A DNA stretch of 64,000 bases from Fidelibacterota bacterium (GTDB taxonomy: Bacteria; Fidelibacterota; UBA2242; JAOZSR01). Location: positions 2,092 to 66,091 of the forward strand of contig JAOZSR010000007.1 of assembly GCA_029939575.1 (NCBI GenBank). The letters are read 5' to 3'. How positions within the stretch are numbered: position 1 is the stretch's first letter; the number at the start of each line of letters is the position of its first letter. Made by a program: the position numbers and the translations under genes. The notes beneath the pieces are model-generated. The model was not told where the DNA came from. It did no database searches and worked only from the letters and a program-made list of their open reading frames with translations. This document shows, one piece after another, positions 30,693-50,206 of the stretch.

Positions 30693-31845
30693 TTTTCAAA
30701 ACTCCAATGACATATTCTTGCTGCTCCTGACTTAAATTTACACTTGCTGGAATATTCAAAGTCCTTTCAACCAATTGATAACACCTCTCCAGTTTATATG
30801 TTTGATAATTATTATAAGGTTTCTGCAAATGATTGAGAAACCAAATAGGTCTGCTCTGAATTTTTTCACTTTCTAAATAAGACATAAGTTCATCTCGGTC
30901 TTTCCCGTAAACTTTTGCATCAATTTGTAAACAATACATCCAATAATTGGATTCTGCATATTCAGGAGTATCACTTAGTTTTACTCCTCTTGTTAATTTT
31001 ATAGCCTGTTTATATTTCAGATAATTAGTTTTTTTTATTTTCAAATACTCCGGTAATTTCTCCAGTTGGCCAACTCCCATAGCAGCCTGGATATTTGTAA
31101 GACGGTAATTATATCCAATTTCATGGTGAATATATTTTACAGGATCATCTTTGGCCTGAGTTGTTAAATAACGCACCTTATTTGCATATTTCTGATTATC
31201 AGTCAGGATCATACCACCACCACCACAGGTGATAATTTTATTCCCGTTAAAAGAAAGACATCCTAAATCTCCAAGAGTTCCAGTGTGTTTTCCTTTATAT
31301 TTGCCATCGGTATAAGATGTACCCAAACTTTCACTGGCATCTTCAATAATTTTAATATTCCGCTTTTTACACAAGTCGATCAGATCATCTAAATAACAGG
31401 CATTACCAAAAATATGAACCGGAATAATTGCAGAAATTCTTTTATTTGTTTTTTTATTATAAGTAAAACCATTTTTAAAAATAGTTGCTTCTCTGATGAA
31501 CTCAATTGTCTTTTCTACATCAATATTATAATAATCATCTGCATCCATAAATATAGGATCTGCATTGCAATATTTAACTACATTAATTGGTGATATAAAA
31601 GTAATTGTCGGAACAATAACCTCATCATCAGGTTTTACTCCGGCTACAATTAAAGCAATATGCAAAGCAGCTGTACCATTTACAACAGCAATAGCATATT
31701 TTGCACCAGTATATTCTGCTATTTTTTCTTCAAATAAATCAACATATTTTCCGGCTGAAGAGACCCACTCTGTGTCAAGACACTCATTAATATATTTCTT
31801 TTCATTTCCTTGAATACTCGGTACTGACAAAGGAATAAATTCCAT
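30679..31845 (-). CDS. DegT/DnrJ/EryC1-family PLP-dependent sugar aminotransferase (second copy)
   Basis: EKIAEYTGAKYAIAVVNGTAALHIAL...IIEDASESLG...GDLGCLSFNGNKIIT is the classic aminotransferase layout with its lysine region. Confidence 0.75.
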   Translation of the reverse strand: MEFIPLSVPSIQGNEKKYINECLDTEWVSSAGKYVDLFEEKIAEYTGAKYAIAVVNGTAALHIALIVAGVKPDDEVIVPTITFISPINVVKYCNADPIFMDADDYYNIDVEKTIEFIREATIFKNGFTYNKKTNKRISAIIPVHIFGNACYLDDLIDLCKKRNIKIIEDASESLGTSYTDGKYKGKHTGTLGDLGCLSFNGNKIITCGGGGMILTDNQKYANKVRYLTTQAKDDPVKYIHHEIGYNYRLTNIQAAMGVGQLEKLPEYLKIKKTNYLKYKQAIKLTRGVKLSDTPEYAESNYWMYCLQIDAKVYGKDRDELMSYLESEKIQSRPIWFLNHLQKPYNNYQTYKLERCYQLVERTLNIPASVNLSQEQQEYVIGVLKNGQK

Positions 31846-31857
31846 TAAATTTCCTCA

Positions 31858-32850
31858 TTAAAGTGTTTGATAAAGTTGTAGAATTTTATCTGCAATTTGT
31901 GGAGATGTTAATCCATACTTTTCTAACAAATCGTTGTATTCTCCTGATTTTCCATAAAGATCCGGATGTCCCAGGATTAGCTGCGGAGGTGAATTTTTCA
32001 ATGTAGATTTGTATTCTGCTATTGCGCTTCCCAAACCACCGATAATATTATGTTCTTCTATAGATACAATCAGATTAGTTCCTTCACAGGCGTTTTTAAT
32101 TGCCATCGTATCCAAAGGTTTAATTGTATGCATATTTACAACACAAGCAGATATTCCCTTTTCCAATAATAAATTAGAAGTTTGTAGGGCTTCATAAACC
32201 ATAGTTCCACAAGCGAATATTGTGATATCTTTTCCATTTTTCAGGATATTTGCTTTTCCAATTTCAAAATCATAATCATCTTCATAAACCATTGGATTTG
32301 GAGTTCCACCAGTTAATCGAATATAGATAGGTCCTTTATGTTTCATAGATGCAATAGTAGCTTTTACAGTTTCCCCACTATCGGCAGGAGAAATTACCGT
32401 CATACCGGGAATTGCCCGCATTATGGCAATATCTTCAATACTGCAATGAGTATATCCAAGTGTGCCAAGTACAATACCGGCAGATAAACCAACCATACAA
32501 ACATCATTGTTCATATACCCAAGATTTACCTTGATTTGTTCACAACAGCGCATGGTTTGAAAAGGTGCAAAAGTCGAAGTTATTACCTTATGCCCCTCAC
32601 TTGCCAGACCTGCTGCTATCCCCATCATATTTTGTTCTGCAATACCAACATCCAGATATTTTTCAGGATGGGTTTTACGAAACCTATCCAACCCTGCAGA
32701 AGTGGAAACATCAGCTGTCAAAATCATGAGGTTTTCCATTGTTTTACCTAATTCAACTGCAGTTAATCCAAATGCAGCTCTGGAGCCTATTCTTGACCAA
32801 ATTTTCATTGTCGCTTTATTTATTTTCATGATTTTTATTCCTAATCCCAA
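31858..32850 (-). CDS. transketolase, C-terminal (pyrimidine-binding) subunit of a split transketolase
   Basis: IAEQNMMGIAAGLASEGHKVITSTFAPF and the C-terminal domain are typical of TktB-type small subunits. Confidence 0.8.
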   Translation of the reverse strand: MGLGIKIMKINKATMKIWSRIGSRAAFGLTAVELGKTMENLMILTADVSTSAGLDRFRKTHPEKYLDVGIAEQNMMGIAAGLASEGHKVITSTFAPFQTMRCCEQIKVNLGYMNNDVCMVGLSAGIVLGTLGYTHCSIEDIAIMRAIPGMTVISPADSGETVKATIASMKHKGPIYIRLTGGTPNPMVYEDDYDFEIGKANILKNGKDITIFACGTMVYEALQTSNLLLEKGISACVVNMHTIKPLDTMAIKNACEGTNLIVSIEEHNIIGGLGSAIAEYKSTLKNSPPQLILGHPDLYGKSGEYNDLLEKYGLTSPQIADKILQLYQTL

Positions 32851-33689
32851 TTTAATTCATCAAGAGCAATTTTATATTGTGATTTTGTCAAAATCGCATG
32901 GTGCCAGTCATTATTATTCTCAGCAAATTGAAAACCTTTTCCTTTGATAGTATGTGCGATAATAGCCACAGGTTTACCAGATTTCTTTTTTAATTTAAAT
33001 AAATCGTACATTTCTTTAATATTATGTCCATCGGTTTCATAAGTATCCCAACCAAAACTAGACCACTTTTCCTTTAAATTGCTAACATCCATTACTTCAG
33101 AGTTAGACCCACCTAACTGGAATTTATTATAATCAATAATAGTTGTCAGATTATCTAATTTGAATTGTGCTCCTGCCATAGCGGCCTCCCAAATTGCTCC
33201 TTCATTACATTCACCATCACCAATCAAAACAAATACTTTGAAATCTTTTTGTCTTTTTTTACCTGAAAAGGCAACTCCAACTCCAAGTGATAATCCCATT
33301 CCCAGGCTTCCATTGGAAAACTCTATTCCTTTTTTCCGGTTCATTACAGGATGTCCTACCAGATCGCTATCAGTTTTTTCAAAAGTTAACAAATTTTCAT
33401 CTGACATTAAACCAATTTCGGCTAATGCAGAATAATATCCAAGTACACCATGTCCTTTACTCAAAATAAACCTATCACGTTCAGGATTCTCAGGATTTGA
33501 AATATCATATTTCATAATACCACCATAAAGTGTAGCTGTAATATCAACTATTGATAATCCACCACCAAAATGAGAGCTTAACTTCCCGGCTTCCAATGAC
33601 ATATCAATAATTTTTTTTCGCATATTTTTTGCCATTTTTGTGATTTTTGTAATGATTTTATCATTGTTATCCATTTTACAAACCTCCAT
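32841..33689 (-). CDS. transketolase, N-terminal (thiamine-diphosphate-binding) subunit
   Basis: GHGVLGYYSALAEIG...VLIGDGECNEGAIWEAAMAGAQFKLDNL is the TPP-binding GDG...N motif of transketolase N-terminal subunits. Overlaps the downstream subunit by 10 nt. Confidence 0.8.
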   Translation of the reverse strand: MEVCKMDNNDKIITKITKMAKNMRKKIIDMSLEAGKLSSHFGGGLSIVDITATLYGGIMKYDISNPENPERDRFILSKGHGVLGYYSALAEIGLMSDENLLTFEKTDSDLVGHPVMNRKKGIEFSNGSLGMGLSLGVGVAFSGKKRQKDFKVFVLIGDGECNEGAIWEAAMAGAQFKLDNLTTIIDYNKFQLGGSNSEVMDVSNLKEKWSSFGWDTYETDGHNIKEMYDLFKLKKKSGKPVAIIAHTIKGKGFQFAENNNDWHHAILTKSQYKIALDELNWD

Positions 33690-34455
33690 CTACCCGTAGA
33701 ACCTGCCCCGTAATAAAAGAAGACATTTCTGAGGCCAGAAATAAAGCGGTATTTGCAATTTCTTTCGGTTGACCAACACGCCGTAACGAAGTACGCTGCA
33801 CAACGTTTTCCAAAACTTCTTTTGGTGTATTTAATTCCATCATATCGGTTTGTGTTAATCCCGGAGCAATTCCGTTGACTCTAATATTAGATAACCCCAA
33901 TTCCCGAGACATGACAACACTCGATGTAATTACCGCTGATTTTGTAGCTGCGTATGCCATTCTGCCTTCATTACATTCATAAGCTGCGCTTGATGCAATG
34001 TTTATCACACTACCCTTTTTTTCTTTTATCATTAATTTAATAATATATTGGCTAAATTTAATTTGTGAGAAAAAATTAATATCAAATAATTCTTTCATTT
34101 TATCTACAGAAGTCATTTGGAATAAAGCTGTAAAAATTGCACCGGCATTATTAACCAATATATCAACTGGTTGTTTTGCTGATCTAATTGATTTGATAGC
34201 ATCTTTCATTTGTTTTTCATCTATAAGATCAAAATAGAGAGGATTTATTTGTACATTATTATCTTTAGCAAGTTGTTCTGTAAATTCTATAAAATCAGGG
34301 CTAGATTTCCTCGCACACGCCCAAACGTTGGCACCATTAATTGCAAAGATTTCAGTAATTGCTTTACCAATCCCCCTATTACTCCCTGTTACAATTGCAG
34401 TTTTCCCTGATAATAACACATTCTCTCCTTCAATTTTCTTTTTTGATATAATCAT
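33676..34455 (-). CDS. SDR-family oxidoreductase (FabG/PtmA-like)
   Basis: TAIVTGSNRGIGKAI (TGxxxGxG) and YAATKSAV (YxxxK) are the SDR signatures. Start chosen at the internal Met (MIISKK); the ORF track extends to 34506. Confidence 0.75.
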   Translation of the reverse strand: MIISKKKIEGENVLLSGKTAIVTGSNRGIGKAITEIFAINGANVWACARKSSPDFIEFTEQLAKDNNVQINPLYFDLIDEKQMKDAIKSIRSAKQPVDILVNNAGAIFTALFQMTSVDKMKELFDINFFSQIKFSQYIIKLMIKEKKGSVINIASSAAYECNEGRMAYAATKSAVITSSVVMSRELGLSNIRVNGIAPGLTQTDMMELNTPKEVLENVVQRTSLRRVGQPKEIANTALFLASEMSSFITGQVLRVDGGL

Positions 34456-35488
34456 CTTTGGTAAAAATCTCTCTTGCATCCAATGGATTAAACACAGACA
34501 TTCCATCCCGTTGCATAAATTTTTTTACAAAATCGACATCTTCACCTGCAAGACAGAGTTTGCTATAATTATGAAAATATTTAATACTAAACCCGTATTC
34601 CGATATATCTTTTAAACTCTGCTCAAACACATTCCCAATTTTAATATGCAAATATGGACAAACCAGTACATCACCAATTGGAGTTATATATAAGCGATTA
34701 ACAGTATTACATCCAATTATTTTTTCATATTGCTTATCAAAAGGATTCCAGAGGTCACGAAGTATATTTTGATATTTTTTTCTTAAATATATTAAATATT
34801 TTAAGTCATCTTCATTTAACATTACATCAGTATGATCCTGCCAGCAACCAGATGGAACTGCGGCATTAATTAATGTTGTATAACCATGTTTTTTAGAATA
34901 TTCACACAACTTTTCAATATCCGGTGATTTAATGTTGTAATGTCCTACAGTAATATTTAAATAAGGTGTCATCCCTGTTTTTTGAACAAATTTCAAAGCC
35001 TCAATAGCTTTTTTCCAGGCACCGCTTTTACCACGGAATTTATCATGAATTTCCGGATCGGCACTATCAATACTGACAGAGACACGGCTGACTCCTGCCT
35101 CAGCTAATTGTTTTGCTATAGATTCATCAAGGAGAAAGCCATTGGTTGTAAGATATAAATAAAATCTTTCCGGTTTGATAGCAGTTAATACATCAAATAA
35201 TTTTTGTGGACGGATTAATAACTCACCACCCTGTAAATCAAATTCAAAAATTCCAAGTTCATCAGCCTGGTTAGCAATATCGCCCATTTTTTCTACTGGC
35301 AATTCCTCTTTAATATGATCTCCCTGAGAAGATCTAGTAAAACAATGCTCACAATGAAAATTACAGGCATTATTATAATTTACGTCAATGCCTCGCTGTT
35401 TTACACCTATTTCACCATTATTTTTTCGAAGAGCAGTATGAAAGCTTCTAAATTTCTCAAATACTCTGGGTTTGTCAATAATTGACAT
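34430..35488 (-). CDS. radical SAM enzyme
   Basis: CNFHCEHC (CxxxCxxC) near the N-terminus followed by the GGE motif (DLQGGELL). No obvious cobalamin-binding N-terminal domain. Confidence 0.7.
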   Translation of the reverse strand: MSIIDKPRVFEKFRSFHTALRKNNGEIGVKQRGIDVNYNNACNFHCEHCFTRSSQGDHIKEELPVEKMGDIANQADELGIFEFDLQGGELLIRPQKLFDVLTAIKPERFYLYLTTNGFLLDESIAKQLAEAGVSRVSVSIDSADPEIHDKFRGKSGAWKKAIEALKFVQKTGMTPYLNITVGHYNIKSPDIEKLCEYSKKHGYTTLINAAVPSGCWQDHTDVMLNEDDLKYLIYLRKKYQNILRDLWNPFDKQYEKIIGCNTVNRLYITPIGDVLVCPYLHIKIGNVFEQSLKDISEYGFSIKYFHNYSKLCLAGEDVDFVKKFMQRDGMSVFNPLDAREIFTKDDYIKKEN

Positions 35489-35522
35489 TATTAATAACTC
35501 CTAATAATTTATTTGTATTATA

Positions 35523-35999
35523 TTACATTTTTTTCGTTACTCGAAATTGTTTTAAAATATCTGGCATTACTATCTGAAAATCAGCCTGACATGAAATTTC
35601 ACCATTAACTGAGCCTGTACCTGTACAATTTCCGATTCCACGTTTCCATGATAATAATTTAGTATCCAAATAAAGACGATCTCCTGGTAAAACTTTTCGC
35701 TTTAGTTTAATATTGTTCGCTGATAATAAATACACTACTTTCCCTTTATTTCCATTTAAAGTTAAAACAGTCAGAGCGCACATTTGAACTAATGCTTCAA
35801 TTTGCAACATCCCGGGCATATTTGGATCGCCGGGAAAATGGACAGGAAAAAACCATTCATCTTCATTTAACAATTTATATCCCTTTGCACTGATTCCGGG
35901 AATAACCTCTTCTGCAAAATCAATCATGCGATATGGTGGTCTGTTTTGTTCATATTCATGAATTTCATTCACATTTAATTTTAATGGCATTAAAGGCAT
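35523..35999 (-). CDS. FabZ/FabA-like hot-dog-fold (3R)-hydroxyacyl-ACP dehydratase
   Basis: HFPGDPNMPGMLQIEALVQ matches the FabZ active-site motif (HFPgxPvmPGvL..Ea.aQ). Confidence 0.7.
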   Translation of the reverse strand: MPLMPLKLNVNEIHEYEQNRPPYRMIDFAEEVIPGISAKGYKLLNEDEWFFPVHFPGDPNMPGMLQIEALVQMCALTVLTLNGNKGKVVYLLSANNIKLKRKVLPGDRLYLDTKLLSWKRGIGNCTGTGSVNGEISCQADFQIVMPDILKQFRVTKKM

Positions 36000-36013
36000 A
36001 ATAAATCCATTTT

Positions 36014-37213
36014 CTATTGAATATTAATTATTCTTGATAAATTTCCTATAACATCATATCCATCCCAGATAGGTCCTATATCAAGAGCCTTCCCTACTGG
36101 TACTACTCTATCAATTCCCTTCAACCTATTATGAAAAATAAAATCTAAAAAAATCTTTTTTTCAAAACCAAAATAGGTTAATGTTTGAAAAGAACTGTCA
36201 ACTAAATGGCTTATCGAATTTATATCACTTGTTTCAAATTCATAAAAATATCCAAACTTTCCAATTAGTTGTTCCTTATTTTCAGGAAGTGCCTCAAGAC
36301 TAATCCGATATAAATTAACTCCATTACTCTTAAATGAAATATTCGATTCCATGTCAATAGCATTCCGGCATAATTGCATATATTTATCAACAGTTTGGAT
36401 ATATTCCATATGATATTTTTTTTCAACAATTCGACTGACAGCCTGCCAAAAAACCTCTTTACCCTTTTTATCACTTTTCCCTAACCATATTACTAATCGG
36501 GGAGACGAACAAGCATTTTGGTCCATCAAATATGTATCATTATAAAATTGCGTTGCAAGTTTTTCCAGATTATTTTCATCTAACTGAATAATTTTTTGAG
36601 CATTAAGCACACAGATAGAATAGCGATCAGAAAAAGCAATTTCAATACATCGGGCAGGAACCATTATTTTTCTGATATTGAATATTGTACTATTTCCTCC
36701 CCAAATAACCCGGGCATCACAGTGTTTAGAAAATTCACCGGTTATTTCATCGTTTTTTTTATAACGAACCACTACAGTATTTTCTTTAAAATTATGATAT
36801 TTTTTTTCTGATAATAACATGTTTAAATCATTACAAATAATATCTATTTGGGGAAATTTTTTTGAAGGAGTTCTGACAATATTGGCATTTCCCGCTAACA
36901 TACTAAAAACCAGGGAAAAGGCAAAATTTATAGGAACATTTGATGGAGTAATATGAAAAGCAAGGCCTCTACCAATTCTATTCTTATTATCATGAAATTC
37001 TGATTTCATTTTTTGGACATTGGCTTTTCGACACCAAAATGAAAAAGTTGCAATATCCGGATATTTTGCAACGTTCCTGTTTTTCCTTAAGATTGATGAA
37101 AATTCATTAAGAAATTCACAAACTAAATCATTATACGGAACCATTGGTCTGACGTCAATTTCAGATTGTCCAACTAAATATTCGATATGCGAATTCTCAG
37201 GCAATTGTATCAC
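36014..37213 (-). CDS. LuxC-family acyl-CoA/acyl-protein reductase-like protein
   Basis: 399 aa; reads as a divergent aldehyde-forming acyl-reductase of the LuxC family. No individual motif was checked. Its neighbour is LuxE-like, which supports the pairing. Overlaps that LuxE-like gene by 17 nt. Confidence 0.5.
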   Translation of the reverse strand: MIQLPENSHIEYLVGQSEIDVRPMVPYNDLVCEFLNEFSSILRKNRNVAKYPDIATFSFWCRKANVQKMKSEFHDNKNRIGRGLAFHITPSNVPINFAFSLVFSMLAGNANIVRTPSKKFPQIDIICNDLNMLLSEKKYHNFKENTVVVRYKKNDEITGEFSKHCDARVIWGGNSTIFNIRKIMVPARCIEIAFSDRYSICVLNAQKIIQLDENNLEKLATQFYNDTYLMDQNACSSPRLVIWLGKSDKKGKEVFWQAVSRIVEKKYHMEYIQTVDKYMQLCRNAIDMESNISFKSNGVNLYRISLEALPENKEQLIGKFGYFYEFETSDINSISHLVDSSFQTLTYFGFEKKIFLDFIFHNRLKGIDRVVPVGKALDIGPIWDGYDVIGNLSRIINIQ

Positions 37214-38279
37214 TGCATCCCCGTATTTCCGCTGAAGTTACTCTTCCATTAATTTTAAAATATTTCCCTTTTCTGCCACAAGAGCAATCATCCTCACCAA
37301 GAATTTGCCCGATATCCTCTGTTAAAATATTATGACCCGGATAACTTTTTGGTAAAAGTGAAATTAATTGTACTAATCCGGATTCTCCGACTTTACAAAG
37401 AGATAAATCAGCCCGTCTAATTAAAATATCTGAATAAATAGATGTATGCAGATGCCCTTCTTCACATTCAATAAAAACTGAACCGGTTTGCTCGACCATA
37501 CCATAATAATTATGAACCCTATTAAGTCCACAACTTTTGTTCAAAGCCTTTTTGTAAGAATCATTATCAACAGATTCCTCGGTTAATTTTTTCCATCCTC
37601 CACCATGAAATAGAATTGCATTTTCTAAAGGCAATCGAATTCCTAAGTCAAGTAATTTTTGATGAAAATATTTCCAAACAACAAAAGTAAATCCAAAAAG
37701 CAATATTTTATCATTTTTGTATTTTTCACAAAATATCTGCACATTTTCAATATCCAGTTCCATATTTTCATCTAAAGCATATTGATGATTTCTACCAAAT
37801 GTTGAAAACCCCAGTATTCCGGCACCACGTGCTGAAAAAAGAGTCCTGTCTTTTAACACAGATGGCGTATCTATAATCAGCATAGGCAGACGTTTTTTGC
37901 CAATAAAATTTGTAACAATTTTAGATAGTACTTTGATTTGATTTTTTGCTGCAGTTTTATCGAGAAAAATTTTTGAAACCCGGTTTCCACCAGTTCCTGA
38001 AGAAGTCATGGTTTTGAATATTTCAGATCTTTTAATACTAAACAAATCATACTCCTTAAATAACCTGACAGGAATGAATGGAATCTCACTTAACTTGTGG
38101 GTTTGTGTGGGATCATAATTTAGTAAATTCAGGATATTACGATAATGATCAGAATTTTGATAATGATGTAAAGTCATTTCATTGACAACCTGTAAAAATA
38201 GTTTATTTTTCTCTTCTTTATTTAATCCATAAGGACAATTTTCAATTATTTGATCAATATTAAACAATCTGATTCTCAT
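37197..38279 (-). CDS. LuxE-family acyl-protein synthetase-like (adenylate-forming)
   Basis: The TSSGTGG motif (phosphate-binding loop of LuxE/PaaK-type adenylating enzymes) and a length of 360 aa fit the LuxE family. Confidence 0.55.
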   Translation of the reverse strand: MRIRLFNIDQIIENCPYGLNKEEKNKLFLQVVNEMTLHHYQNSDHYRNILNLLNYDPTQTHKLSEIPFIPVRLFKEYDLFSIKRSEIFKTMTSSGTGGNRVSKIFLDKTAAKNQIKVLSKIVTNFIGKKRLPMLIIDTPSVLKDRTLFSARGAGILGFSTFGRNHQYALDENMELDIENVQIFCEKYKNDKILLFGFTFVVWKYFHQKLLDLGIRLPLENAILFHGGGWKKLTEESVDNDSYKKALNKSCGLNRVHNYYGMVEQTGSVFIECEEGHLHTSIYSDILIRRADLSLCKVGESGLVQLISLLPKSYPGHNILTEDIGQILGEDDCSCGRKGKYFKINGRVTSAEIRGCSDTIA

Positions 38280-39685
38280 TAATTTAATTCAGAGTATAAT
38301 ACTTTCCCGGAATCATTTCTGGGAATATTATCAATAAATTTCATTTTAAAACCAGCTAAGTTGATACCTATTTTAGTTGAAATATATTTTAATACCTTTG
38401 TTTTATCAACATTCCCAGTAAAATAAATTACAAGATTATCATCTGTTCCGGCACAGGCACAGTTATAACCTTTGGTTTTTAACAATTGCTCAACTTCATC
38501 AAGATTAACCCGTTTACCATACATTTTCAAAAATCGTTTCATTCGACCTGTAATATAGAAAAATCCATCGTCATCCCGTTTTGCCATGTCACCTGTATGT
38601 AATATTCCTTTATTTTCATCACCTTTGGAAAGATCAGCAATACATTGAGCATATCCCAGAGTTACATTTTTTCCCTTATATACTAATTCACCGGAAACAT
38701 TATTTTGCTCAATCTTTTGATTATTCAGGTCTTCCAGCCAAAATTGCCCGCCCGGAATTGCAATTCCCATACTGCCCAGTTTTTTTTCTGCAAATTCCCA
38801 GGGTAAATATGACATTCTTGCTGTTGCTTCTGTCTGACCATACATTACAATAAATTTCATATTTTTAGATCTACAAATTTGATTGAATTCAGCAATTATT
38901 TCCTTATTTAGTTTTCCTCCGGCCTGAGTTAATACACGTAAATCCGGTAAATCCATTCTTTCAAAACGTAATTTCTTTAACATTTCATAAATATATGGCA
39001 CTCCACCAAAAGTAGTTGCTTTATACTTTTTTATTTGAGTCCAAAACTTTTTCTCCATCAAAGTTGAATCAGTCATAATAATTGAAGCACCACATAAAAA
39101 ATGGCTGTTTATAATTGATAACATAAAAGTATAACTCATTGGCATTGTAGCAATGGGACGGTCTTTTGGACTAATCTCCAAATATTGGGCAATTGATTCT
39201 GCATTACTATTTATATTTTCATAAGATTGGCGGACAAATTTTTGACTACCTGTACTACCGGATGTTGTCAGCAATAGCGCCAGGTTCGAATCTATCTTAT
39301 GATGTTTATTAAATTGAGTTTTCACTAAAGAATATGCAGAATCTGAAAAAGTCACATCACCATCAATTTTCAGAGGTTTTGATGAATTGGGACGAAAAAT
39401 AAAATTGGGTTGATACTGATTTACCAAGGTTATGAGTAAATCCTGGTCAATTGTGTTATGAATAAGACAAATAACTGCTTTTGCTCGTAAGGCTCCAATA
39501 TATCCGGCAACTGATTCAAAACTATTTTGACAGATAGCAAAAACCAGATCACGGTTTTCCAAAAATTTACCAATCTCATCAGCTTTCTGTATTAATTTCT
39601 GATAAGTTATTTTTTTTCCGCTACTGGTAATAATAGCCAGTTTGTCCTTGTATTTATCAATATCATCATAATAATTCATATTCAC
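38279..39685 (-). CDS. AMP-dependent synthetase/ligase (acyl-ACP/CoA ligase)
   Basis: LLTTSGSTGSQKFV (AMP-binding motif I), YGQTEA (motif II), GDMAKRDDDGFFYITGRMKRFLK (motif III and hinge). Confidence 0.75.
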   Translation of the reverse strand: MNMNYYDDIDKYKDKLAIITSSGKKITYQKLIQKADEIGKFLENRDLVFAICQNSFESVAGYIGALRAKAVICLIHNTIDQDLLITLVNQYQPNFIFRPNSSKPLKIDGDVTFSDSAYSLVKTQFNKHHKIDSNLALLLTTSGSTGSQKFVRQSYENINSNAESIAQYLEISPKDRPIATMPMSYTFMLSIINSHFLCGASIIMTDSTLMEKKFWTQIKKYKATTFGGVPYIYEMLKKLRFERMDLPDLRVLTQAGGKLNKEIIAEFNQICRSKNMKFIVMYGQTEATARMSYLPWEFAEKKLGSMGIAIPGGQFWLEDLNNQKIEQNNVSGELVYKGKNVTLGYAQCIADLSKGDENKGILHTGDMAKRDDDGFFYITGRMKRFLKMYGKRVNLDEVEQLLKTKGYNCACAGTDDNLVIYFTGNVDKTKVLKYISTKIGINLAGFKMKFIDNIPRNDSGKVLYSELN

Positions 39686-39727
39686 TCCATTTGGTTAAAT
39701 CTTCAAAATTTTAATTATTTCATGGAG

Positions 39728-39967
39728 TCACATTTCAATTTTATATTTTTTCAAAATTTCTTTTCCTTTATTATATGAACTAAAATCAATAACATCATCA
39801 GTTTCAAGCATAATTTCAAATGCTTCTTCTAAGGATGCGATTAAAGACATATGCCCTACTGAATCCCATTCCGGAATTGTATTATATTCAAGTTCAGCGT
39901 TTAATTTACTTGCCTCAATTGAAAAGTTTTCCATAAATGCCTGATTATATTTTTCCTGGTTATTCAT
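39728..39967 (-). CDS. acyl carrier protein-like (phosphopantetheine attachment)
   Basis: 79 aa, acidic, with WDSVGHMSLIASLEEAF containing the DS(x) phosphopantetheinylation motif. Confidence 0.6.
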   Translation of the reverse strand: MNNQEKYNQAFMENFSIEASKLNAELEYNTIPEWDSVGHMSLIASLEEAFEIMLETDDVIDFSSYNKGKEILKKYKIEM

Positions 39968-39988: not shown

Positions 39989-40966
39989 TTATTTAAGGTT
40001 CTGATAATTTTTTGAATAGGGATTTTTAAGTATCCCATCCTTTAATAATTTATAAATTTCCCAGATTCCATCAGAAACTCTTTTATTTATTTCATATCCT
40101 AAACAATCTTTAATTTTTGAAAATTCAACCCTATAATCACGAGGATCTTCATCTTTTTTCACATAAGATATTTTAGCATTAGGGATCATTTCCGACATTA
40201 TTTCAGCCAGCATTTTTTTCTGATAATTTTCCTGAGTATCACCAACACCAAAAACCTGTTGATTTACTTTTTCTTTTGGACTTTCGAGTACCAGAATACA
40301 TGCTTTTGCTAAATCTTCAACATGACAATAAGGACGCCAGAACTGTTCTCCAAAAATCACTAATTCTTTACCCAAAGTTAATTCTCTGGCAAATTCATTT
40401 ACTGTCAAATCAAAACGCATACGAGGTGAGATTCCATAAACAGTGGAAAAACGTAATGCAGTGGGAGATAAACTTTTTATTGATTCACTTTCGAGTATAT
40501 ATTTTTCGAACTTTACTTTTAATTTCGCATAAAGAGAAACCGGATTAAGAGGTGATTTTTCATTAACATACCCTGTTCCTTCCATTTTTCCATAATTGCT
40601 ACAAGTTGATGCAAAAATAAATCGTTGAATTGTTTTACTTTCATTGCATTTATCAAATAATAGTTTTGATCCTTCCCAATTAGTTTGAGTTGCAATCTGC
40701 GGATCTTTGGCACATGCCGGATCGCCGACTATTGCTGCAAGATGTACGACACTATCAATATTTTCAAGACTTTTTTCAATATCTTCTTTCTTCCTTATAT
40801 CACCTCTGAAAAATTCAAAATTTGGATGAGAATATATACTTAACAATGATTCTCCTCCAAAATTCAAAATATCCATCCCTCTGACAAAATATCCTTTAGA
40901 TAAAAGTTTTCGGGTTAAAATAGAGCCAATATAACCTGCGCAGCCTGTAACTAAAACACGCCTCAT
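39989..40966 (-). CDS. NAD-dependent epimerase/dehydratase (extended SDR)
   Basis: N-terminal VLVTGCAGYIGSIL Rossmann motif and a length of 325 aa, typical of nucleotide-sugar epimerases/dehydratases. Confidence 0.75.
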   Translation of the reverse strand: MRRVLVTGCAGYIGSILTRKLLSKGYFVRGMDILNFGGESLLSIYSHPNFEFFRGDIRKKEDIEKSLENIDSVVHLAAIVGDPACAKDPQIATQTNWEGSKLLFDKCNESKTIQRFIFASTCSNYGKMEGTGYVNEKSPLNPVSLYAKLKVKFEKYILESESIKSLSPTALRFSTVYGISPRMRFDLTVNEFARELTLGKELVIFGEQFWRPYCHVEDLAKACILVLESPKEKVNQQVFGVGDTQENYQKKMLAEIMSEMIPNAKISYVKKDEDPRDYRVEFSKIKDCLGYEINKRVSDGIWEIYKLLKDGILKNPYSKNYQNLK

Positions 40967-40968: not shown

Positions 40969-42267
40969 TTATTTTCCTCCGGGAATTAGAGTTAATATTT
41001 CTTTAATCGGCATACAGTATTTATCCGCTTCAAGAGCTCGTTCATTCTCTAAAATACTTTTTGCAGTATTTAACATAGCCGGATATGCGCTTCTTAATAA
41101 TTGATTAGCATAAATAACAACAGAAATTCCAGAATCAATCAATTCTTTTTCTGTAATCTTACAATAGGTTGAAGGCACAACTACTACAGGAACGCGTTTT
41201 TTAAAATTATTATAGGATTGACAAAATTCTAATATTTCATCGGGACTTTTTTCTTTGCTATGTATCATAATAGCATCTGCTCCTGCACGAATATAAGCAT
41301 TAGCACGAATCAGGGCATCGTCAATACCCTTTTTCAAAATCAGGCTCTCGATTCTGGCAATAATCATAAAATCATTTGTCACCTGGGCTTCTTTACCTTG
41401 TTTAATTTTATCACAAAAATGCTCAATATCATCCTGTTTTTGTTTAACATCAGTTCCAAAAAGCGAATTTTTCTTTAAACCAATTTTATCTTCGATAATT
41501 ATTGCTGAAATACCAAGTCGCTCAAGGCTTCGGACTGTAAAAACAAACCGTTCTGAAATACTCCCGGTATCACCATCAACAATTATTGGTTTTGTTGTTA
41601 CTTCCAGAATGTTATTTATAGTTGACATGCGGGAGGTGAAATCTACTAATTCAATATCAGGTTTGCCTTTGGCTGTGGAATCAGTAAGACTACTAATCCA
41701 AATCCCATCAAATTCATTAATTTTTTCTTTCTTCTGAACCTGTACATTTTCGGCGATAAGCCCAGTTAATCCATTATGAGCCTCAATAACTCTTACAATG
41801 GGTTTTGCTTCAATTAATCTCCGGAGTTTTGCTCTTCTGATTTCTGAAGTTGTGCCTACTTCTTTAATACGTGCATTGAGATATGTAGATGAAACACCTT
41901 CGGTATATGGTACTTCTATTAATTTTCCACCCCATTTTTTTAATGTATCAATTACCCGTTTCCTGGTTTCGTGCTGCACACCGGTTTTCCAATCATCTCC
42001 ATGTACAACAAAATCCGGTTTGTACTTTTCTAAATTTGGAACATAATCAAGAGTTTCCTGAGGAAAAACCTGGCTCACTCCTTTAATATTTCGAATAATT
42101 TCTTCACGTTGTTTATAATTCATATATGGCAAACGTTTATAACTTGCTATTGCCTGATCTGTAAGTAATCCAACAATAACTTCCCCATATTCCCTGGCTT
42201 TTTTAATAACGTTTAAATGTCCGGGATGTATCAGATCAGCACTCATTCCTATATATACTTTTTCCAT
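40969..42267 (-). CDS. bifunctional cytidylyltransferase / phosphoenolpyruvate phosphomutase (Fom1-like Ppm-CyTase fusion)
   Basis: N-terminus: [15 protein letters not shown] (HxGH nucleotidyltransferase motif). C-terminus: VDGDTGSI and [15 protein letters not shown], which match the PEP mutase/isocitrate-lyase-superfamily catalytic motifs (vDaDtGfG; EDK..PKrcgH region). Confidence 0.8.
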
Positions 42268-42295
42268 AATTTCACCTATATCAATTAATTATAAC

Positions 42296-43624
42296 TTATA
42301 TATTTACTTTATCTTTAAAATCTTTCGGTAATCCCGGATAATTGTATGGAGGATGAACATTTTCTCCCGGAGGTGGCAATTTCCCACCATACCAGGCGGA
42401 TGTATCTTTATGAATATCACATATAAATCTGCTAACCAGAGCTAACTGTTCATAATAACTGAGATTAGAAATTTTTTCTACGGATTTGATTTTTTCGGGG
42501 TTTAGTTTTTGTATAATTTCAGTTAAATTTGTTACCCAAATATCGCACATTCTTTTCCTGAACATCTTAGTCTTATTTTCTAAATATTCTGATTTATATG
42601 AAGGTTCATCAAAAACTTTTATGTCTTCCAACGTCCAATCATATCTTAATGGATGACGAGCAAAATCATTTAATAAATTTCGATTTTCACCTGGGTCAGA
42701 TAAGAGATCATAAAGTTCTTCCTGAGAGCCGGTTATGGCGGTATGAGGACTATAATGAGCAATATATTTCCATTGATCTTTAAGAATAGAGGTTACCCGG
42801 TGAGGTTGCATTTTATACATTGTATCAGAAATAATTTCTTCTGCTACTTCAATCACATTATCAGTAATCAGCGGATTTAATTGCATTAAATGATGATTTT
42901 CATTAATAATACGCGGTTTATCTGCTGTAATAAAACAAGGTACCCTAATTATTGTCTCATATAAAAAGAAAGCATGACCAATTAAATTATTATGTTCTTT
43001 TGACATATCTCCATGATCAGAATAAAAAATCAAGGTTGTATCATCCAAATTAATTTGATCATATAAAATTCCGAGAGCCTGATCATCTTCTCTGATAATT
43101 CTTTTTAACATTTGAGGATCATCAGGATTTTCCGGAGTTACAGGCGGAACTGCAGAACATGAATGATAAAACAAAAAATATGGATCGTCAACATCTTTAA
43201 TTGTATCTAATATATTTTGAATTGTTTTTTTTGTTGTGCCTTGTTCAATAATAACTCTTTCTGCATCATCTCCCATATAAATACCATCAGCATAATCCTG
43301 AATATATTTTTCAGTAAATAAAATAAAATTTTTTCTACCGGTATCTTTCATTTTCTTAAAAATATTATCTGCATAAAATTGTGGTTTATCCTCAGGATAA
43401 GTAAATCTATCAAACTGATAAGGTAATCTATTATTTATAATTGCACTGAGCGTCATTACTGTAGAAGCAGAATTAGAATACATTTTTTTAAATACAATAC
43501 TTTTTTGTGCTATTCTATCCATGTTAGGTGTTGGAAATCTTCCACCAAAAGTCGAATATAAATTTTGACTTCTACTATCAATCGAAAACATTATAATATT
43601 TTTCTTAGGTTTAAAATTCACCAT
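42296..43624 (-). CDS. sulfatase / alkaline-phosphatase-superfamily protein (no obvious TM anchor)
   Basis: N-terminal IIMFSIDSRSQ and mid-protein IFYSDHGDM resemble the metal-binding motifs of sulfatase/phosphoethanolamine-transferase catalytic domains. Confidence 0.55.
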   Translation of the reverse strand: MVNFKPKKNIIMFSIDSRSQNLYSTFGGRFPTPNMDRIAQKSIVFKKMYSNSASTVMTLSAIINNRLPYQFDRFTYPEDKPQFYADNIFKKMKDTGRKNFILFTEKYIQDYADGIYMGDDAERVIIEQGTTKKTIQNILDTIKDVDDPYFLFYHSCSAVPPVTPENPDDPQMLKRIIREDDQALGILYDQINLDDTTLIFYSDHGDMSKEHNNLIGHAFFLYETIIRVPCFITADKPRIINENHHLMQLNPLITDNVIEVAEEIISDTMYKMQPHRVTSILKDQWKYIAHYSPHTAITGSQEELYDLLSDPGENRNLLNDFARHPLRYDWTLEDIKVFDEPSYKSEYLENKTKMFRKRMCDIWVTNLTEIIQKLNPEKIKSVEKISNLSYYEQLALVSRFICDIHKDTSAWYGGKLPPPGENVHPPYNYPGLPKDFKDKVNI

Positions 43625-43635
43625 AATTTTCCTTA

Positions 43636-44745
43636 CTAATAAATTTCTTTTAAAATATTTACAATCTTATCTGGAGTTAAATCAACAATATTGTTCTCAA
43701 TACGTCCCTTTGCCATACTTTGCTTTGAAAGAAAATTTAACTCTTCCTCTTTCACTCCATAATGAGATAATTTAAAACCAATTTTTTCATTTATACTTAA
43801 TAGGATATCATGCCAAAAAATTTCTATATTTTTAGAGCCTGTTAATGCTAAAATTTGCTTGATTTCTGTTTTGATTTTTGGATAATTTATTTTTAATAAA
43901 GAATAAAGTGACATTGAACATGCAATACCATGAGGAATATTATAATATAATGTTAATGGATAACTAATAGAATGAGCAGCTCCTGTTTTAGTATTTGAAA
44001 AGGCTAATCCTGCATACATAGAAGCTAAAATTAATTCTTTCCGCATTTCCTTTGATATTGCTTTCTCTATTTTTGTTATACAATTATAAATTATTACAAT
44101 TGCAGAAATTGCTAATCTTGTAGAAACAGGATTCCTGTTTTTATTCCAGATAGCTTCAAAAGCATGAGATAGAGCATCTAAGGTAGAAATAATAGAATTT
44201 TCCAAGGATAAGGTCGATAATAAGTCAACATTATAAATTGCAAAATCCGGATAGTTTCCCACATCAGAAACAGATATTTTCTTTTTATTTTTTTTATCCC
44301 ACACTGTTGCCCACATTGTTAATTCACTTCCGGTACCATGGGTTGATGGAGCAACAATAAAAATAGGTTTTTTGAATTTTTCAGGATTTAATTTCAATAA
44401 ATTGTTAATATTTTTTTCATGGGTATATAATGACATTCGTACAGTTTTTGCCGTATCAATTACCGAACCACCACCGATTGCAATAATTAAATCCGGTTTT
44501 ATTTTCCAGGCATAATCAATAGAACTTTGGCAACTTTTTAACGACGGATTCAATTCATATTCCGAAAAAACATTTAAATTTGGTTTTGCCTGAGATAATT
44601 TTTTAAAATATTCGGTTTCAATAAAATGTTTATAGCAAAACAGAATAATTTTGTTCTGATCAAAATTATCTATTTGACTTATTAAAGTATCAACCAAATC
44701 ATCTGAATGAAATATTGTAACCGGATTATAGTATTGCCAATTCAT
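43636..44745 (-). CDS. iron-containing alcohol dehydrogenase (phosphonoacetaldehyde reductase candidate, FomC/PhpC-like)
   Basis: GGGSVIDTAK and the downstream His-rich metal-binding region are typical of group III Fe-ADH. Adjacent to ppd and ppm. Confidence 0.7.
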   Translation of the reverse strand: MNWQYYNPVTIFHSDDLVDTLISQIDNFDQNKIILFCYKHFIETEYFKKLSQAKPNLNVFSEYELNPSLKSCQSSIDYAWKIKPDLIIAIGGGSVIDTAKTVRMSLYTHEKNINNLLKLNPEKFKKPIFIVAPSTHGTGSELTMWATVWDKKNKKKISVSDVGNYPDFAIYNVDLLSTLSLENSIISTLDALSHAFEAIWNKNRNPVSTRLAISAIVIIYNCITKIEKAISKEMRKELILASMYAGLAFSNTKTGAAHSISYPLTLYYNIPHGIACSMSLYSLLKINYPKIKTEIKQILALTGSKNIEIFWHDILLSINEKIGFKLSHYGVKEEELNFLSKQSMAKGRIENNIVDLTPDKIVNILKEIY

Positions 44746-45845
44746 TTTTTTAAGGAATCCATAAATTTTAATTTCATTTCTACTGGTGTAATATTTGGTC
44801 TCTTCAGATCTTTAATAGTTCCTTGTTTAATAGGAATATGCAGAAAAACCGGGCCGGAAGTTTTTGAGAATTTTAGCAAATATTTTTTAAATTCATCGGG
44901 ATTATTAATCGTTAAACTTTCATTATAGCCACATTCTTTCGCAATTTTTGGGAAATTACATTTTGAAGAAGTTGTTTTTTGACCACCTGTTGATTCATAA
45001 ACCTGATTATCAAAACATATATGCACAAAATTTTCAGGTTTATAAAATCCAACAGTTGACAGAGTTCCCATTTTCATCAATAAAGCTCCATCACCATCTA
45101 AGACAAAAATTCTTCTATCAGGAAATGATTTGGCAATTCCAAGACCAATTGATGCTAAACATCCCATAGAGCCCATCATATAAAATTTCCCTGCAATATC
45201 TGATGTCTGGTAAAGTTCTCTTCCGGAAAACCCGGTCGCTCCCAGGAGAATATCATCTTTTTGTGAAACCTCTGATAATTTTTCCAGATAATCTAACCTG
45301 GAATACAAAGCTAATTTTTCTTTACATCCTTCGTTAAATTTTTCAAAATATCCTTTTTCGATTATAAATGCATAAGGAGTAGATTGTTTATTAAAATGAT
45401 TAAATGCGGTTTTAATTTGCTTATTTAAATCTTCCGGGGAATCATTCTCTTTAAGTAAAAGACTGTAAGGAATGCTAAAAACTGACAATAATTCCCGAAT
45501 TGTATCTCCCATAATTTTATGCTGCGGTGCATCATTCATGCCTGGCTTAGCTCTCCATGAAATAAGTAACAAGGCTGGTAATTTATACATTAATTGCAGA
45601 GATGATAATGGATTAATTGCATTACCATATCCATCATTTTGCATATAAACTACCGGGACATTATCTGAAAGGGCGATGCCAGCTGCAATTCCCATTGCTT
45701 CTCCCTCTGAAGAGCAGGTATAATTATTCACTTTTTCATGAAATTCAATGTAATTAATCAGATCTTTAAAAACAGAACAGGGAACGCCGGAAAAATTTAG
45801 TAATTTATTGTTAATTAACGAATTTATAAAAGTTTGTGGTTTCAT
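44742..45845 (-). CDS. ppd: phosphonopyruvate decarboxylase-like TPP enzyme
   Basis: 367 aa. TPP-binding motif VLDGDGALLMKMGTLSTVG. The length and architecture fit the Ppd/sulfopyruvate-decarboxylase family. It is the first gene of the long operon and overlaps the Fe-ADH by 4 nt. Confidence 0.7.
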   Translation of the reverse strand: MKPQTFINSLINNKLLNFSGVPCSVFKDLINYIEFHEKVNNYTCSSEGEAMGIAAGIALSDNVPVVYMQNDGYGNAINPLSSLQLMYKLPALLLISWRAKPGMNDAPQHKIMGDTIRELLSVFSIPYSLLLKENDSPEDLNKQIKTAFNHFNKQSTPYAFIIEKGYFEKFNEGCKEKLALYSRLDYLEKLSEVSQKDDILLGATGFSGRELYQTSDIAGKFYMMGSMGCLASIGLGIAKSFPDRRIFVLDGDGALLMKMGTLSTVGFYKPENFVHICFDNQVYESTGGQKTTSSKCNFPKIAKECGYNESLTINNPDEFKKYLLKFSKTSGPVFLHIPIKQGTIKDLKRPNITPVEMKLKFMDSLKK

Positions 45846-46461: not shown

Positions 46462-46545
46462 TCTCCCTCCCTGGAGATTTAATATTTAATAAATTGACTA
46501 TAATTACAGAAATTCTCATGGGAATTTTCCTTATCTTATTAAAAA

Positions 46546-46977: not shown

Positions 46978-47001
46978 GTTTCTTGGTAACCTTTCCTTTT
47001 T

Positions 47002-47883: not shown

Positions 47884-47917
47884 ATCAAACTCCTTTCCTC
47901 ATCTCTTTCAATTTCCC

Positions 47918-49276: not shown

Positions 49277-49283
49277 AATTCCC

Positions 49284-50196: not shown

Positions 50197-50206
50197 TTTT
50201 TCACTC

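Follow-up and report, generated by a model that had tools for sequence, protein, structure and literature searches.

The genes considered here lie on contig JAOZSR010000007.1 of a Fidelibacterota bacterium, within a stretch of 64,000 nucleotides (GC content about 31%) that was analysed as a whole and is referred to as the window. One of its proteins falls into a 90% cluster with RKY90159.1, which belongs to an Ignavibacteriota MAG, and on this basis the phylum was taken to be Ignavibacteriota in the analysis. A first-pass annotation of the same DNA had drawn attention to five consecutive open reading frames (ORFs) at 35523-39967, all on the minus strand, and had labelled them a free-standing carrier protein, an adenylate-forming ligase, LuxE-like and LuxC-like proteins and a hot-dog dehydratase. 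All five ORFs are found at these positions, in this order and on this strand; the family labels are right, and the catalytic residues are intact. Judged by gene content, the conserved unit is larger than these five genes: a locus from an unrelated sample (L002) has a matching block of nine, and the full set of nine is found in seven loci other than that of the window. The unit extends over 31858-39967 and includes, besides the five, a radical S-adenosylmethionine (SAM) enzyme, a short-chain dehydrogenase/reductase (SDR) and a split transketolase. In the order of transcription, its genes are:

39728-39967, minus strand: free-standing acyl carrier protein (ACP), 79 aa, phosphopantetheine site Ser36 in W-D-S-V-G-H (NCBIfam, PDB profile, AlphaFold)
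38279-39685 (probable ATG start at 39679), minus strand: ANL-superfamily adenylate-forming ligase, candidate ACP loader (PF00501, 6.2e-48)
37197-38279, minus strand: LuxE-type acyl-protein synthetase (PF04443, 5.3e-56, full length)
36014-37213, minus strand: LuxC-type acyl-thioester reductase (aldehyde-forming), catalytic Cys235 (PF05893, 2.3e-26)
35523-35999, minus strand: FabZ/FabA-type hot-dog dehydratase (PF07977, 2.9e-19)
34430-35488, minus strand: radical-SAM enzyme with a partial SPASM/twitch C-terminal domain and the cluster motif CNFHCEHC (PF04055, 8.4e-26; SPASM, 1.6e-5)
33676-34506 (true start probably at 34452-34479), minus strand: FabG-type SDR (PF13561, 7.8e-53)
32841-33689, minus strand: transketolase N-terminal subunit (TKN), binding thiamine diphosphate (ThDP) (PF00456, 4.1e-37; NCBIfam transketolase, 3.4e-80)
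31858-32850, minus strand: transketolase C-terminal subunit (TKC), with pyrimidine-binding and C-terminal domains (PF02779, PF02780; NCBIfam transketolase, 1.3e-72)

The window proteins were mapped onto 82 loci, namely the window contig (L001) and 81 related loci, these being L002 and 80 loci taken from one genome per species; all counts out of 82 include the window contig. All ORFs of the loci were also clustered without bias, and the representatives were annotated with Pfam. Within the window, the Pfam scan covered 48 of the 54 non-nested ORFs of at least 110 aa. What the genes are, the integrity of their active sites, their order and their joint conservation in the 81 related loci are established by this analysis.

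Identity and active sites of the cassette proteins

The ACP has no match in Pfam, and matches an ACP subfamily of NCBIfam at 5e-5. A profile built from 43 homologues finds only ACPs in the PDB, the best match being 2lml (9.8e-7). An alignment-based AlphaFold model, which replaced a single-sequence model of pLDDT 63.5, has a pLDDT of 94.5, and the 50 PDB matches listed for it in a fold search are all acyl-carrier-protein entries, either free or in complex, with TM-scores of 0.69-0.85. The protein is an acyl carrier protein. Its site, W-D-S36-x-G-H, is kept in all 59 homologues from related loci.

The ligase contains the core motifs TSGSTGSQK and NDSGK. Its closest solved relatives are firefly luciferases at the top, followed by oxalate-CoA ligase, malonyl-CoA synthetase and FadD13. 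Its NCBIfam matches include acyl-CoA ligases (1.5e-52 and 1.6e-44), amino-acid adenylation (8e-40), DltA (2e-28) and the 2-oxoglutaryl-ACP ligase AmcH. The amino-acid adenylation and DltA matches would suit an aminoacyl carrier system, in which a DltA/DltC-like ligase and ACP load an amino acid (Ala, Glu or similar) and N-aminoacylate a nonulosonic acid, with LuxE and LuxC serving a separate purpose; N-alanyl and N-glutamyl nonulosonates do exist. The acyl-CoA ligase matches are better, however, and the ligase lacks the Asp of the FDxS motif, which binds the alpha-amino group in amino-acid A-domains, and reads MPMSYTF at that place. It is also tied to LuxE and LuxC in nearly all loci. We regard an aminoacyl system as very improbable.

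The family placement of the next two proteins is confirmed by profile search: 37197-38279 belongs to LuxE and 36014-37213 to LuxC, with no indication of unrelated families. The LuxE-like protein aligns end to end with Photobacterium LuxE (7xc6_E), including the lysine of GGGWK and the C-terminal motif T..RGCS, within which lies the acylated cysteine of LuxE, Cys364 (PMC9157457). In the LuxC-like protein the PF05893 match spans residues 77-267 only; across the catalytic Cys, DQNACSS is aligned with DQQACFS of Photobacterium LuxC (7xc6_A). The two acyl-accepting cysteines of the Photobacterium proteins align with Cys235 (LuxC) and Cys355 (LuxE) of the window. Among homologues in the related loci, Q-x-A-C235 of LuxC is kept in 73/73 and K230 together with R-G-C355-S-D of LuxE in 67/67. 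For the FabZ-like protein, whose FabZ matches in NCBIfam are under cut-off, H54 is kept in 26/27 and E68 in 27/27.

In luminous bacteria, the C-terminal Cys of LuxE is acylated in an ATP-dependent reaction, and the acyl group passes to the Cys of LuxC and is reduced with NAD(P)H to the aldehyde (PMC9157457). The same ATP- and NAD(P)H-dependent conversion of an acid to an aldehyde is expected for the window pair, because every catalytic residue is conserved; the LuxE-like protein is expected to activate a carboxylate with ATP and to acylate itself on Cys355. Compared with LuxCDE of luminous bacteria (7xc6; PMC9157457), the window pair keeps the fold of LuxE and that of LuxC, as well as the lysine and both cysteines that accept the acyl group. 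It differs in that LuxD and luciferase are present there and were not found among the scanned ORFs of the window, and in that LuxC has 477 aa in the 7xc6 chain against 399 aa here.

These could in principle be ordinary bioluminescence genes making fatty aldehyde for a luciferase, the single point in favour being the Pfam membership of LuxC and LuxE. Against this, the NCBIfam equivalog scores are far under cut-off (31.7 against 750 for LuxC, 71.3 against 550 for LuxE), the hosts are largely metagenome-assembled genomes (MAGs) from gut, rumen and further environmental sources, and the operon around the genes is a glycan operon. The ORFs of the 64-kb window that were scanned against Pfam include no luxA, luxB or luxD, in agreement with the first-pass annotation, which had noted that luxAB were missing. 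Bioluminescence was rejected for the window on this ground, and we find it scarcely conceivable. The cassette probably works like LuxC/LuxE, yet it is not a bioluminescence system; it is of a known kind, known from sequence.

The proposal that the five genes are translationally coupled holds for part of them. The ligase and LuxE genes share TAATG, with an overlap of 1 nt, and LuxE and LuxC overlap by 17 nt given the GTG start, but spacers of 14 nt separate LuxC from FabZ and of about 42-48 nt the ACP from the ligase. A scan for sigma-70 promoters and terminators gave counts at chance level, and for this reason no operon boundaries were drawn. Among the remaining proteins of the unit, the closest solved structures to the radical-SAM enzyme are MoaA, BlsE and SkfB, and the SDR has the motifs TGxxxGIG, NNAG and YxxxK.

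Distribution, partner genes and published relatives

Homologues of the LuxE-like protein, at about 60% identity, number at least 8000 and come from genomes and metagenomes of many phyla. The cassette is therefore less singular than the first-pass annotation implied; it has also been reported previously in glycosylation islands of Aeromonas and Enterobacteriaceae, and resembles the tetronate genes of Vibrio cholerae. The phyla sampled include Proteobacteria, Campylobacterota, Bacillota, Bacteroidota, Spirochaetota and Synergistota, among others. Within them are Beta- and Alphaproteobacteria, SAR324, Arcobacter, Helicobacter, Lachnospiraceae, Oscillospiraceae, Selenomonas, Clostridium, Synergistaceae, Bacteroides/Prevotella and Treponema. 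The genes are distributed over the loci as follows:

Core genes per locus: LuxE 82/82, LuxC 80/82, ligase 76/82, ACP 70/82
Accessory genes per locus: SDR 54/82, TKN 30/82, TKC 31/82, FabZ 25/82, radical-SAM enzyme 11/82
Sugar genes per locus: DegT within 10 kb in about 30/82, NeuB within 10 kb in 21/82

Gaps among the core genes fall mostly at contig ends, and the core of the cassette is ACP, ligase, LuxE and LuxC, to which variable accessory enzymes are added. The ligase is usually directly upstream of LuxE, and LuxC directly downstream of LuxE in nearly all loci that have both, the exceptions being L084 and truncated contigs. The radical-SAM enzyme is nearly always accompanied by FabZ. An SDR is present in 28 of the 31 transketolase loci, about 20 of which have a contiguous SDR-TKN-TKC arrangement, and in loci that have no carboligase it usually adjoins the ACP, as it does in Aeromonas. 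The transketolase, which had been noticed as a neighbour with a possible link to the five genes, is thus a co-conserved member of the cassette (30-31/82 loci). The block in L002, which has the order ACP-ligase-LuxE-LuxC-FabZ-radical SAM-SDR-TKN-TKC and after which come NeuB and a CMP-nonulosonate synthetase, is 53-70% identical to the window proteins. L002 is a locus of capsule type that has Wzz, SLBB and NusG-like genes. The cassette is found together with a transketolase in a rumen Treponema MAG (L036) as well. Among cultivable carriers, Butyrivibrio proteoclasticus, Selenomonas ruminantium and Pseudoduganella have the transketolase, and Aeromonas AH-3 does not.

The cassette usually lies in loci for amino sugars or nonulosonates. 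Recognisable sugar genes are found in 38 of the 55 long loci, and co-occurrence with NeuB, put forward in the first-pass annotation as a check, is seen in the quarter or so of the loci counted above. A flagellin gene adjoins the cassette in only 3 related loci. On this gene content, the cassette is best described as a putative general glycan-tailoring module that is not specific to flagella.

Several further genes recur beside the cassette. A PglD-type N-acyltransferase of the left-handed β-helix (LbH) fold directly precedes the (SDR-)ACP genes in 13 loci, an Acetyltransf_3-type GNAT cluster is present in 10 loci, and KAS III in 9. A dehydrogenase of the lactate/malate dehydrogenase (LDH/MDH) family comes right after LuxC in 13 loci (L011, L019, L033, L039, L048, L050, L058, L060, L061, L065, L073, L076 and L078). 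All 13 copies have Arg at the position of LDH Gln102; a rule attributed to Wilks and colleagues (1988) assigns Gln at this position to LDH, and Arg to MDH. The Arg signature hints at a dicarboxylic 2-oxo- or 2-hydroxy-acid precursor.

The cassette is also carried by ten Rhizobium plasmids in PLSDB. The gene order there is TKN, TKC, LpxA-like acyl-ACP acyltransferase, ACP, ligase, glycosyltransferase and DegT, continuing with LuxE, LuxC, SDR, GMC oxidoreductase, FabZ and a methyltransferase. In the example from Rhizobium anhuiense plasmid pRA_T24_2 (L083, 185517-199000) the LpxA-like acyltransferase is directly upstream of the ACP, and no NeuB was found in the 25-kb stretch examined.

Two published surveys describe closely similar gene sets. 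A 2021 study of Aeromonas found ACP, 3-oxoacyl-ACP reductase, AMP-dependent synthetase, luxE and luxC conserved between the pse genes of 98 strains whose flagellin glycosylation islands belong to Group II, and its authors proposed that these are fatty-acid genes which might make a "liposugar". A 2016 survey of Enterobacteriaceae listed Acp, LuxE, LuxC, CaiC, FabG and FabZ in the flagellin glycosylation islands of about 70-80 strains. Compared by description, these islands and the window are alike in having ACP, AMP-dependent synthetase, LuxE, LuxC and a FabG-type reductase together (within 33676-39967 in the window), and in having the cassette between nonulosonate genes and beside flagellar genes. 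The published islands have the pseudaminic acid (Pse) pathway and, as the papers describe them, no transketolase or radical-SAM gene, whereas the window has a legionaminic acid (Leg)-type pathway together with FabZ, the radical-SAM enzyme, the split transketolase and a phosphonate branch. The window cassette is likely to be orthologous to the Aeromonas and enterobacterial genes, because the LuxE family is 52-60% identical across phyla.

The published interpretation, 'fatty acid synthesis' leading to a 'liposugar', would place a long acyl or alkyl chain on the flagellin glycan. In its favour, myristate is the substrate of LuxC/LuxE in luminous bacteria (PMC9157457), the cassette includes FabG- and FabZ-type enzymes, and KAS III occurs in some of the related loci, as noted above. 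However, no ketosynthase, malonyl-CoA:ACP transacylase or enoyl reductase was found among the scanned window ORFs, and the partners (transketolase, ALS-like and MDH-like enzymes) would make no sense for a lipid. The cassette-bearing Aeromonas strains have Pse derivatives of 376 and 422 Da, which are 60 and 106 Da above Pse5Ac7Ac, far below the mass of a fatty chain. The surface-exposed flagellar filament is moreover an unlikely site for a lipid. We consider a lipid modification improbable.

A different precedent is provided by V. cholerae O1, in which 2,4-dihydroxybutanoyl (tetronate) is the N-acyl group of perosamine. The tetronate genes include those for a carrier protein (RfbK), for a ligase by which the acid is put on this carrier (RfbL) and for RfbN, which has a LuxE domain according to PMC4772473; the pathway is a sequence-based proposal (1995, Gene 166:19). 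By description, the two systems share an ACP, a ligase and a LuxE-domain protein. They differ in that the V. cholerae sugar is perosamine of the O-antigen, and that of the window a nonulosonate on flagellin, and in that the transketolase, FabZ and radical-SAM enzyme of the window are all missing from V. cholerae. Presumably RfbN has a LuxC-like half as well, RfbM is an iron-containing alcohol dehydrogenase (Fe-ADH) and RfbO is an LbH acetyltransferase; in the window, LuxE and LuxC are separate proteins, an SDR takes the place of the Fe-ADH, and there is no LbH transferase.

Two further arrangements bear on how the cassette might be used. In 19 loci a type II thioesterase (PF00975) lies exactly between the ligase and LuxE, and a metallo-β-lactamase (MBL)-fold hydrolase is found in 9. 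In about 10 loci (L006, L011, L014, L060, L062, L063, L065, L071, L078 and L080) a triad of FabZ, an ALS-like ThDP enzyme and NeuB lies by the ACP, and in L011 and L080 there is a second NeuB near the CMP-synthetase, besides that of the triad. One possibility is that the NeuB-type synthase in triad loci condenses phosphoenolpyruvate (PEP) with a non-sugar aldehyde. The thioesterase, the MDH-like gene and the LbH transferase are all absent from the window.

These arrangements would fit a sequential logic like that of lux genes, where the canonical order of bioluminescence is acyl-ACP, LuxD, LuxE, LuxC. The ligase would load a starter acid on the ACP, the SDR, FabZ and radical-SAM enzyme would tailor it, a thioesterase or hydrolase would release it, and LuxE and LuxC would convert it to an aldehyde. 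The aldehyde would then be the actual building block: the transketolase might extend it to a ketose-like skeleton, a NeuB-type synthase might condense it with PEP, or it might be transaminated, and there would be no N-acyl group. The thioesterase position, the MBL-fold hydrolase, the triad and the second NeuB all suit this order. On the other side, the window has no thioesterase, loading on an ACP followed by hydrolysis and a second adenylation would be wasteful, and type II thioesterases are commonly editing enzymes. The LbH transferase of acyl-ACP type directly upstream of the ACP, in the 13 loci and in Rhizobium, points to the ACP thioester as the donor, and the V. cholerae precedent ends as an N-acyl group. 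An aldehyde end product is thus possible, though in our view on the unlikely side.

The split transketolase has a parallel of its own. Transketolase-dependent formation of glycolyl-ACP is said to have been described by Peng and colleagues in 2012 for the pathways of tetrahydroisoquinoline antibiotics (QncN/QncL/QncM, NapB/NapD). The likeness lies in a split transketolase and a free-standing ACP that supply a secondary pathway with a C2 unit taken from a ketose phosphate. The difference is that a lipoyl-E2-type partner oxidises and transfers the C2 unit there, whereas the constant partner in the cassette is the aldehyde-forming LuxE/LuxC pair; neither the window nor the recurrent clusters of the 82 loci yielded a lipoyl-bearing E2-type acyltransferase. 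The papers on Tannerella Pse5Am7Gra and on Clostridium Pse do not mention the cassette. The literature searched does not describe the nine-gene form with split transketolase and radical-SAM enzyme, the pan-phylum distribution or the modular accessory repertoire.

The glycosylation island in the window

The cassette is part of an unbroken run of minus-strand glycan genes, which spans the gap between two groups of flagellar genes: flagellin, FliD and FlaG at 1358-4643, and FlgH, FlgI, FlgN, FlgK, FlgL, FliW and CsrA at 46228-51975. The order of transcription is phosphonate branch, LegB-like gene, cassette, LegC, formyltransferase-fold protein, family 2 glycosyltransferase (GT2), NeuB and PseF-like CMP-synthetase. 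Further on come a GFO/IDH/MocA oxidoreductase, a second DegT, an Epimerase_2 protein and a CBS-nucleotidyltransferase, and last a GNAT, an amidotransferase of WbuX/PseA type and very large glycosyltransferase proteins with tetratricopeptide repeats (TPR). The features closest to the sugar pathway, and the phosphonate branch, are:

39989-40966, minus strand: LegB-like NAD-dependent sugar-nucleotide dehydratase/epimerase, directly upstream of the ACP (PF01370, 3.9e-43)
30679-31845, minus strand: LegC-family aminotransferase, the next gene after the transketolase (TIGR04181, 479.9 bits against a cut-off of 420)
30015-30692, minus strand: formyltransferase-fold protein, candidate acyl or formyl transferase (PF00551, 7.5e-10)
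22215-22781, minus strand: GNAT (Acetyltransf_3, PseH-like), candidate N-acyltransferase (PF13302, 1.1e-8)
40969-45845, minus strand: phosphonate branch, comprising phosphonopyruvate decarboxylase, Fe-ADH, a soluble sulfatase/alkaline-phosphatase-family protein and a cytidylyltransferase-PEP mutase fusion (Fom1-like)

The LegB-like gene matches TIGR04180 (LegB) at 1.6e-23, under cut-off. The island setting claimed by the first-pass annotation is borne out, with the LegB-like gene and LegC flanking the cassette, NeuB and the CMP-synthetase downstream, and flagellar genes on both sides. Its idea that the adjacent aminotransferase might build an unusual aglycone is not, as the protein is an ordinary LegC by its TIGR04181 score. 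On these assignments, the run of genes is a flagellin glycosylation island, built on a nonulosonate of predicted legionaminic-acid type.

The window offers two candidates for an N-acyltransferase. The formyltransferase-fold protein directly follows LegC, which is the slot of the N-acetyltransferase in the Leg pathway. It matches sugar N-formyltransferases of NCBIfam at about 1e-13, all of its matches being under cut-off, and its motif is INFHTGPPEYPG, divergent from HxSLLPxxRG, the canonical form. The protein may transfer N-formyl groups, or may be an N-acyl transferase of an unconventional type. The GNAT matches PseH (TIGR03585) at 8e-9, under cut-off, and its C-terminal 63 residues are 46% identical (8e-12) to the GNAT cluster that recurs beside the cassette in related loci.

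It is worth adding that the phosphonate branch is complete inside the flagellin glycosylation island, and that its phosphonopyruvate decarboxylase matches TIGR03297 over cut-off. This suggests that a CMP-activated 2-hydroxyethylphosphonate may decorate the flagellin glycan. A Ruminococcus MAG (L070) also has a cytidylyltransferase-PEP mutase fusion and an Fe-ADH near its own cassette. The Fe-ADH of the window (43636-44745), flanked by the phosphonopyruvate decarboxylase and the PEP mutase, was considered as an RfbM-like reductase of the cassette and rejected, its best match being the phosphonate-associated PsrA model and its counterpart in L070 likewise having a PEP mutase as companion. The idea that the cassette is itself part of a phosphonate pathway was also rejected, as PEP mutase is present in only 2/82 loci.

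Other genes of the island add to the picture of an elaborate glycan. The N-acetyl sugar amidotransferase of WbuX/PseA type (20985-22193, minus strand) scores 311.9 bits with TIGR03573 against a cut-off of 203.2, and has no Pfam match; its presence implies a likely acetamidino group on the nonulosonate. A 3237-aa ORF (10417-20130, minus strand) contains three GT2 domains, one GT4, a methyltransferase domain and several TPR blocks, and two smaller TPR-GT2 proteins lie at 5665-7029 and 7084-8076. These may be flagellin glycosyltransferases of the TPR-plus-GT (FlmG-like) architecture. A protein with a cyclic-nucleotide-binding domain (8140-9135, minus strand) lies among the glycosyltransferase genes. 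The operon also has a 242-aa ORF (20144-20872, minus strand) with no matches in Pfam or NCBIfam. It was compared with a recurrent Pfam-less cluster of 244 aa in the related loci and shows no similarity to it. The window is a further instance of the nine-gene variant, which here shares its island with a phosphonate branch and with an amidotransferase predicted to form acetamidino groups.

A possible route to an acyl side chain

We put at about even the probability that the nine genes encode a carrier-protein-dependent pathway to a short, oxygenated, non-acetyl acyl group, which would replace an N-acetyl of the nonulosonic acid. The more general statement, that the cassette provides an ACP-dependent, non-acetyl, oxygenated acyl substituent for an amino sugar, is if anything slightly more probable than that. 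The specific chemistry from malate by way of transketolase, set out below, is a good deal more tentative. We infer the substrates, the order of the steps, the transferase and the final structure.

In the proposed scheme, LuxE would activate a carboxylate with ATP and hold it as a thioester on its own Cys355. The acyl group would pass to Cys235 of LuxC, where NAD(P)H would reduce it to an aldehyde, so that the two proteins would serve as a carboxylate reductase for a small hydroxy-(di)acid, malate being favoured, rather than for a fatty acid. Two fates of the aldehyde can be envisaged. The SDR might reduce it to an alcohol, malate semialdehyde giving dihydroxybutanoate. Alternatively, the aldehyde might be the acceptor of the split transketolase. 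A ketose phosphate would then donate a C2 ketol unit, and reduction of the new ketone by the SDR would lead to a tetrahydroxyhexanoate skeleton; this would give the C6 polyhydroxy acid in the variant of the window. The N-acyl group predicted for cassettes lacking the transketolase is C4H7O3, 60.02 Da heavier than acetyl, and for those with it a C6 polyhydroxy or dehydrated acyl group, heavier by about 102 to 120 Da. The ANL ligase would then adenylate the remaining carboxyl and load it on Ser36 of the ACP, where dehydration by FabZ and the radical-SAM step would tailor the tethered chain. Finally, an N-acyltransferase would place the chain on the 4-amino sugar made by LegB and LegC. The candidates for this are the formyltransferase-fold protein or the GNAT in the window, and a PglD/LpxA-type LbH enzyme elsewhere. 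The scheme would explain why the cassette has two adenylating enzymes.

The nature of the substrates is suggested by the company that the genes keep. The partners in the window (ACP, ANL ligase and transketolase), together with the MDH-like partner of the relatives, point to small polar substrates, and the relatives of the ligase (oxalate- and malonyl-CoA ligases, AmcH) together with the MDH-like Arg are hints of small dicarboxylates or hydroxy acids. This indirect evidence points to a short polar acid as the probable substrate rather than a long chain (C14). About half of the loci have a ThDP carboligase that needs an aldehyde acceptor (split transketolase in 30-31, ALS-like enzyme in 10), which suggests that the two enzymes may be two solutions to the same aldehyde-consuming step.

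Known sugars are consistent with products of this kind. The Pse derivative of Aeromonas AH-3 has a mass of 376.14 Da. Addition of C2H4O2 (60.021) to Pse5Ac7Ac (316.127) gives 376.148, which fits a dihydroxybutanoyl group in place of an acetyl. The tetronate of V. cholerae would be a precedent, by analogy, for the scheme without transketolase. The flagellin nonulosonate of Treponema denticola has a 2-methoxy-4,5,6-trihydroxyhexanoyl group, for which the corresponding sum is 316.127 + 120.042 + 14.016 = 450.185, and its acyl carbon skeleton is the one predicted, by analogy, from malate semialdehyde, a transketolase C2 unit and ketoreduction. The occurrence of a transketolase-type cassette in the rumen Treponema MAG (L036) agrees with the scheme. 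A short hydroxy-acyl unit on an amino sugar was also one of the outcomes suggested in the first-pass annotation. It is the best-supported reading, with evidence that is comparative throughout: the LegB/LegC flanks, the LbH transferases and the Aeromonas masses.

A number of points weigh against such an acyl side chain or its proposed route. The substrates of the two adenylating enzymes cannot be read from sequence, and since the window has no MDH-like gene, thioesterase or LbH transferase, several of the supports come from relatives only. The thioesterase between ligase and LuxE fits the lux-like order, with an aldehyde as end product, equally well. FabZ needs a 3-hydroxyacyl thioester, which the simplest scheme, with C1 of malate on the ACP, does not provide, and the radical-SAM step has no explanation in the scheme. 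The formyltransferase-fold candidate beside LegC has a divergent motif. The composition of the 376-Da derivative has no unique solution. The acyl group of T. denticola could equally come from 2-keto-3-deoxygluconate; T. denticola gave no entry in a homology search seeded with a rumen Treponema LuxE or in a cluster look-up, and a literature search found nothing on LuxC or LuxE in this species. No biochemical characterisation of these systems was found in the literature searched.

Taken at its most specific, the acyl side-chain reading would make LuxE/LuxC, the split transketolase and the SDR an undescribed C2-elongating assembly line for polyol acids, converting malate to a C6 chain like a 3-deoxy-aldonic acid, which would be carried on the ACP and amide-linked to the nonulosonic acid. 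We offer this version tentatively, as possible but hardly probable. It would add a carboxylate-reductase/transketolase route to polyhydroxy acids for use in biocatalysis.

The locus itself is not a unique system; its value is that it provides a testable hypothesis for a widespread cassette, found also in gut, rumen and pathogen-related taxa, that has been mislabelled as genes for fatty-acid synthesis or bioluminescence. The nonulosonic acids of flagella, capsules and O-antigens are relevant to immunity, and antigenic and phage-receptor specificity depends largely on the N-acyl groups that they carry. The genes for N-acyl groups beyond acetyl and acetimidoyl are mostly unassigned. With the right functional assignment, glycan side chains would become predictable from genomes, and orphan masses such as the 376- and 422-Da Pse derivatives of Aeromonas and the 450-Da sugar of T. 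denticola could be explained. If the proposal is true, cassettes that have no transketolase would make dihydroxybutanoyl groups, as in the V. cholerae tetronate and the 376-Da sugar of Aeromonas, and those with transketolase would make groups of the T. denticola trihydroxyhexanoyl type. A single widespread cassette would then lie behind a whole class of N-acyl groups that decorate the surface sugars of bacteria and have so far lacked an explanation.

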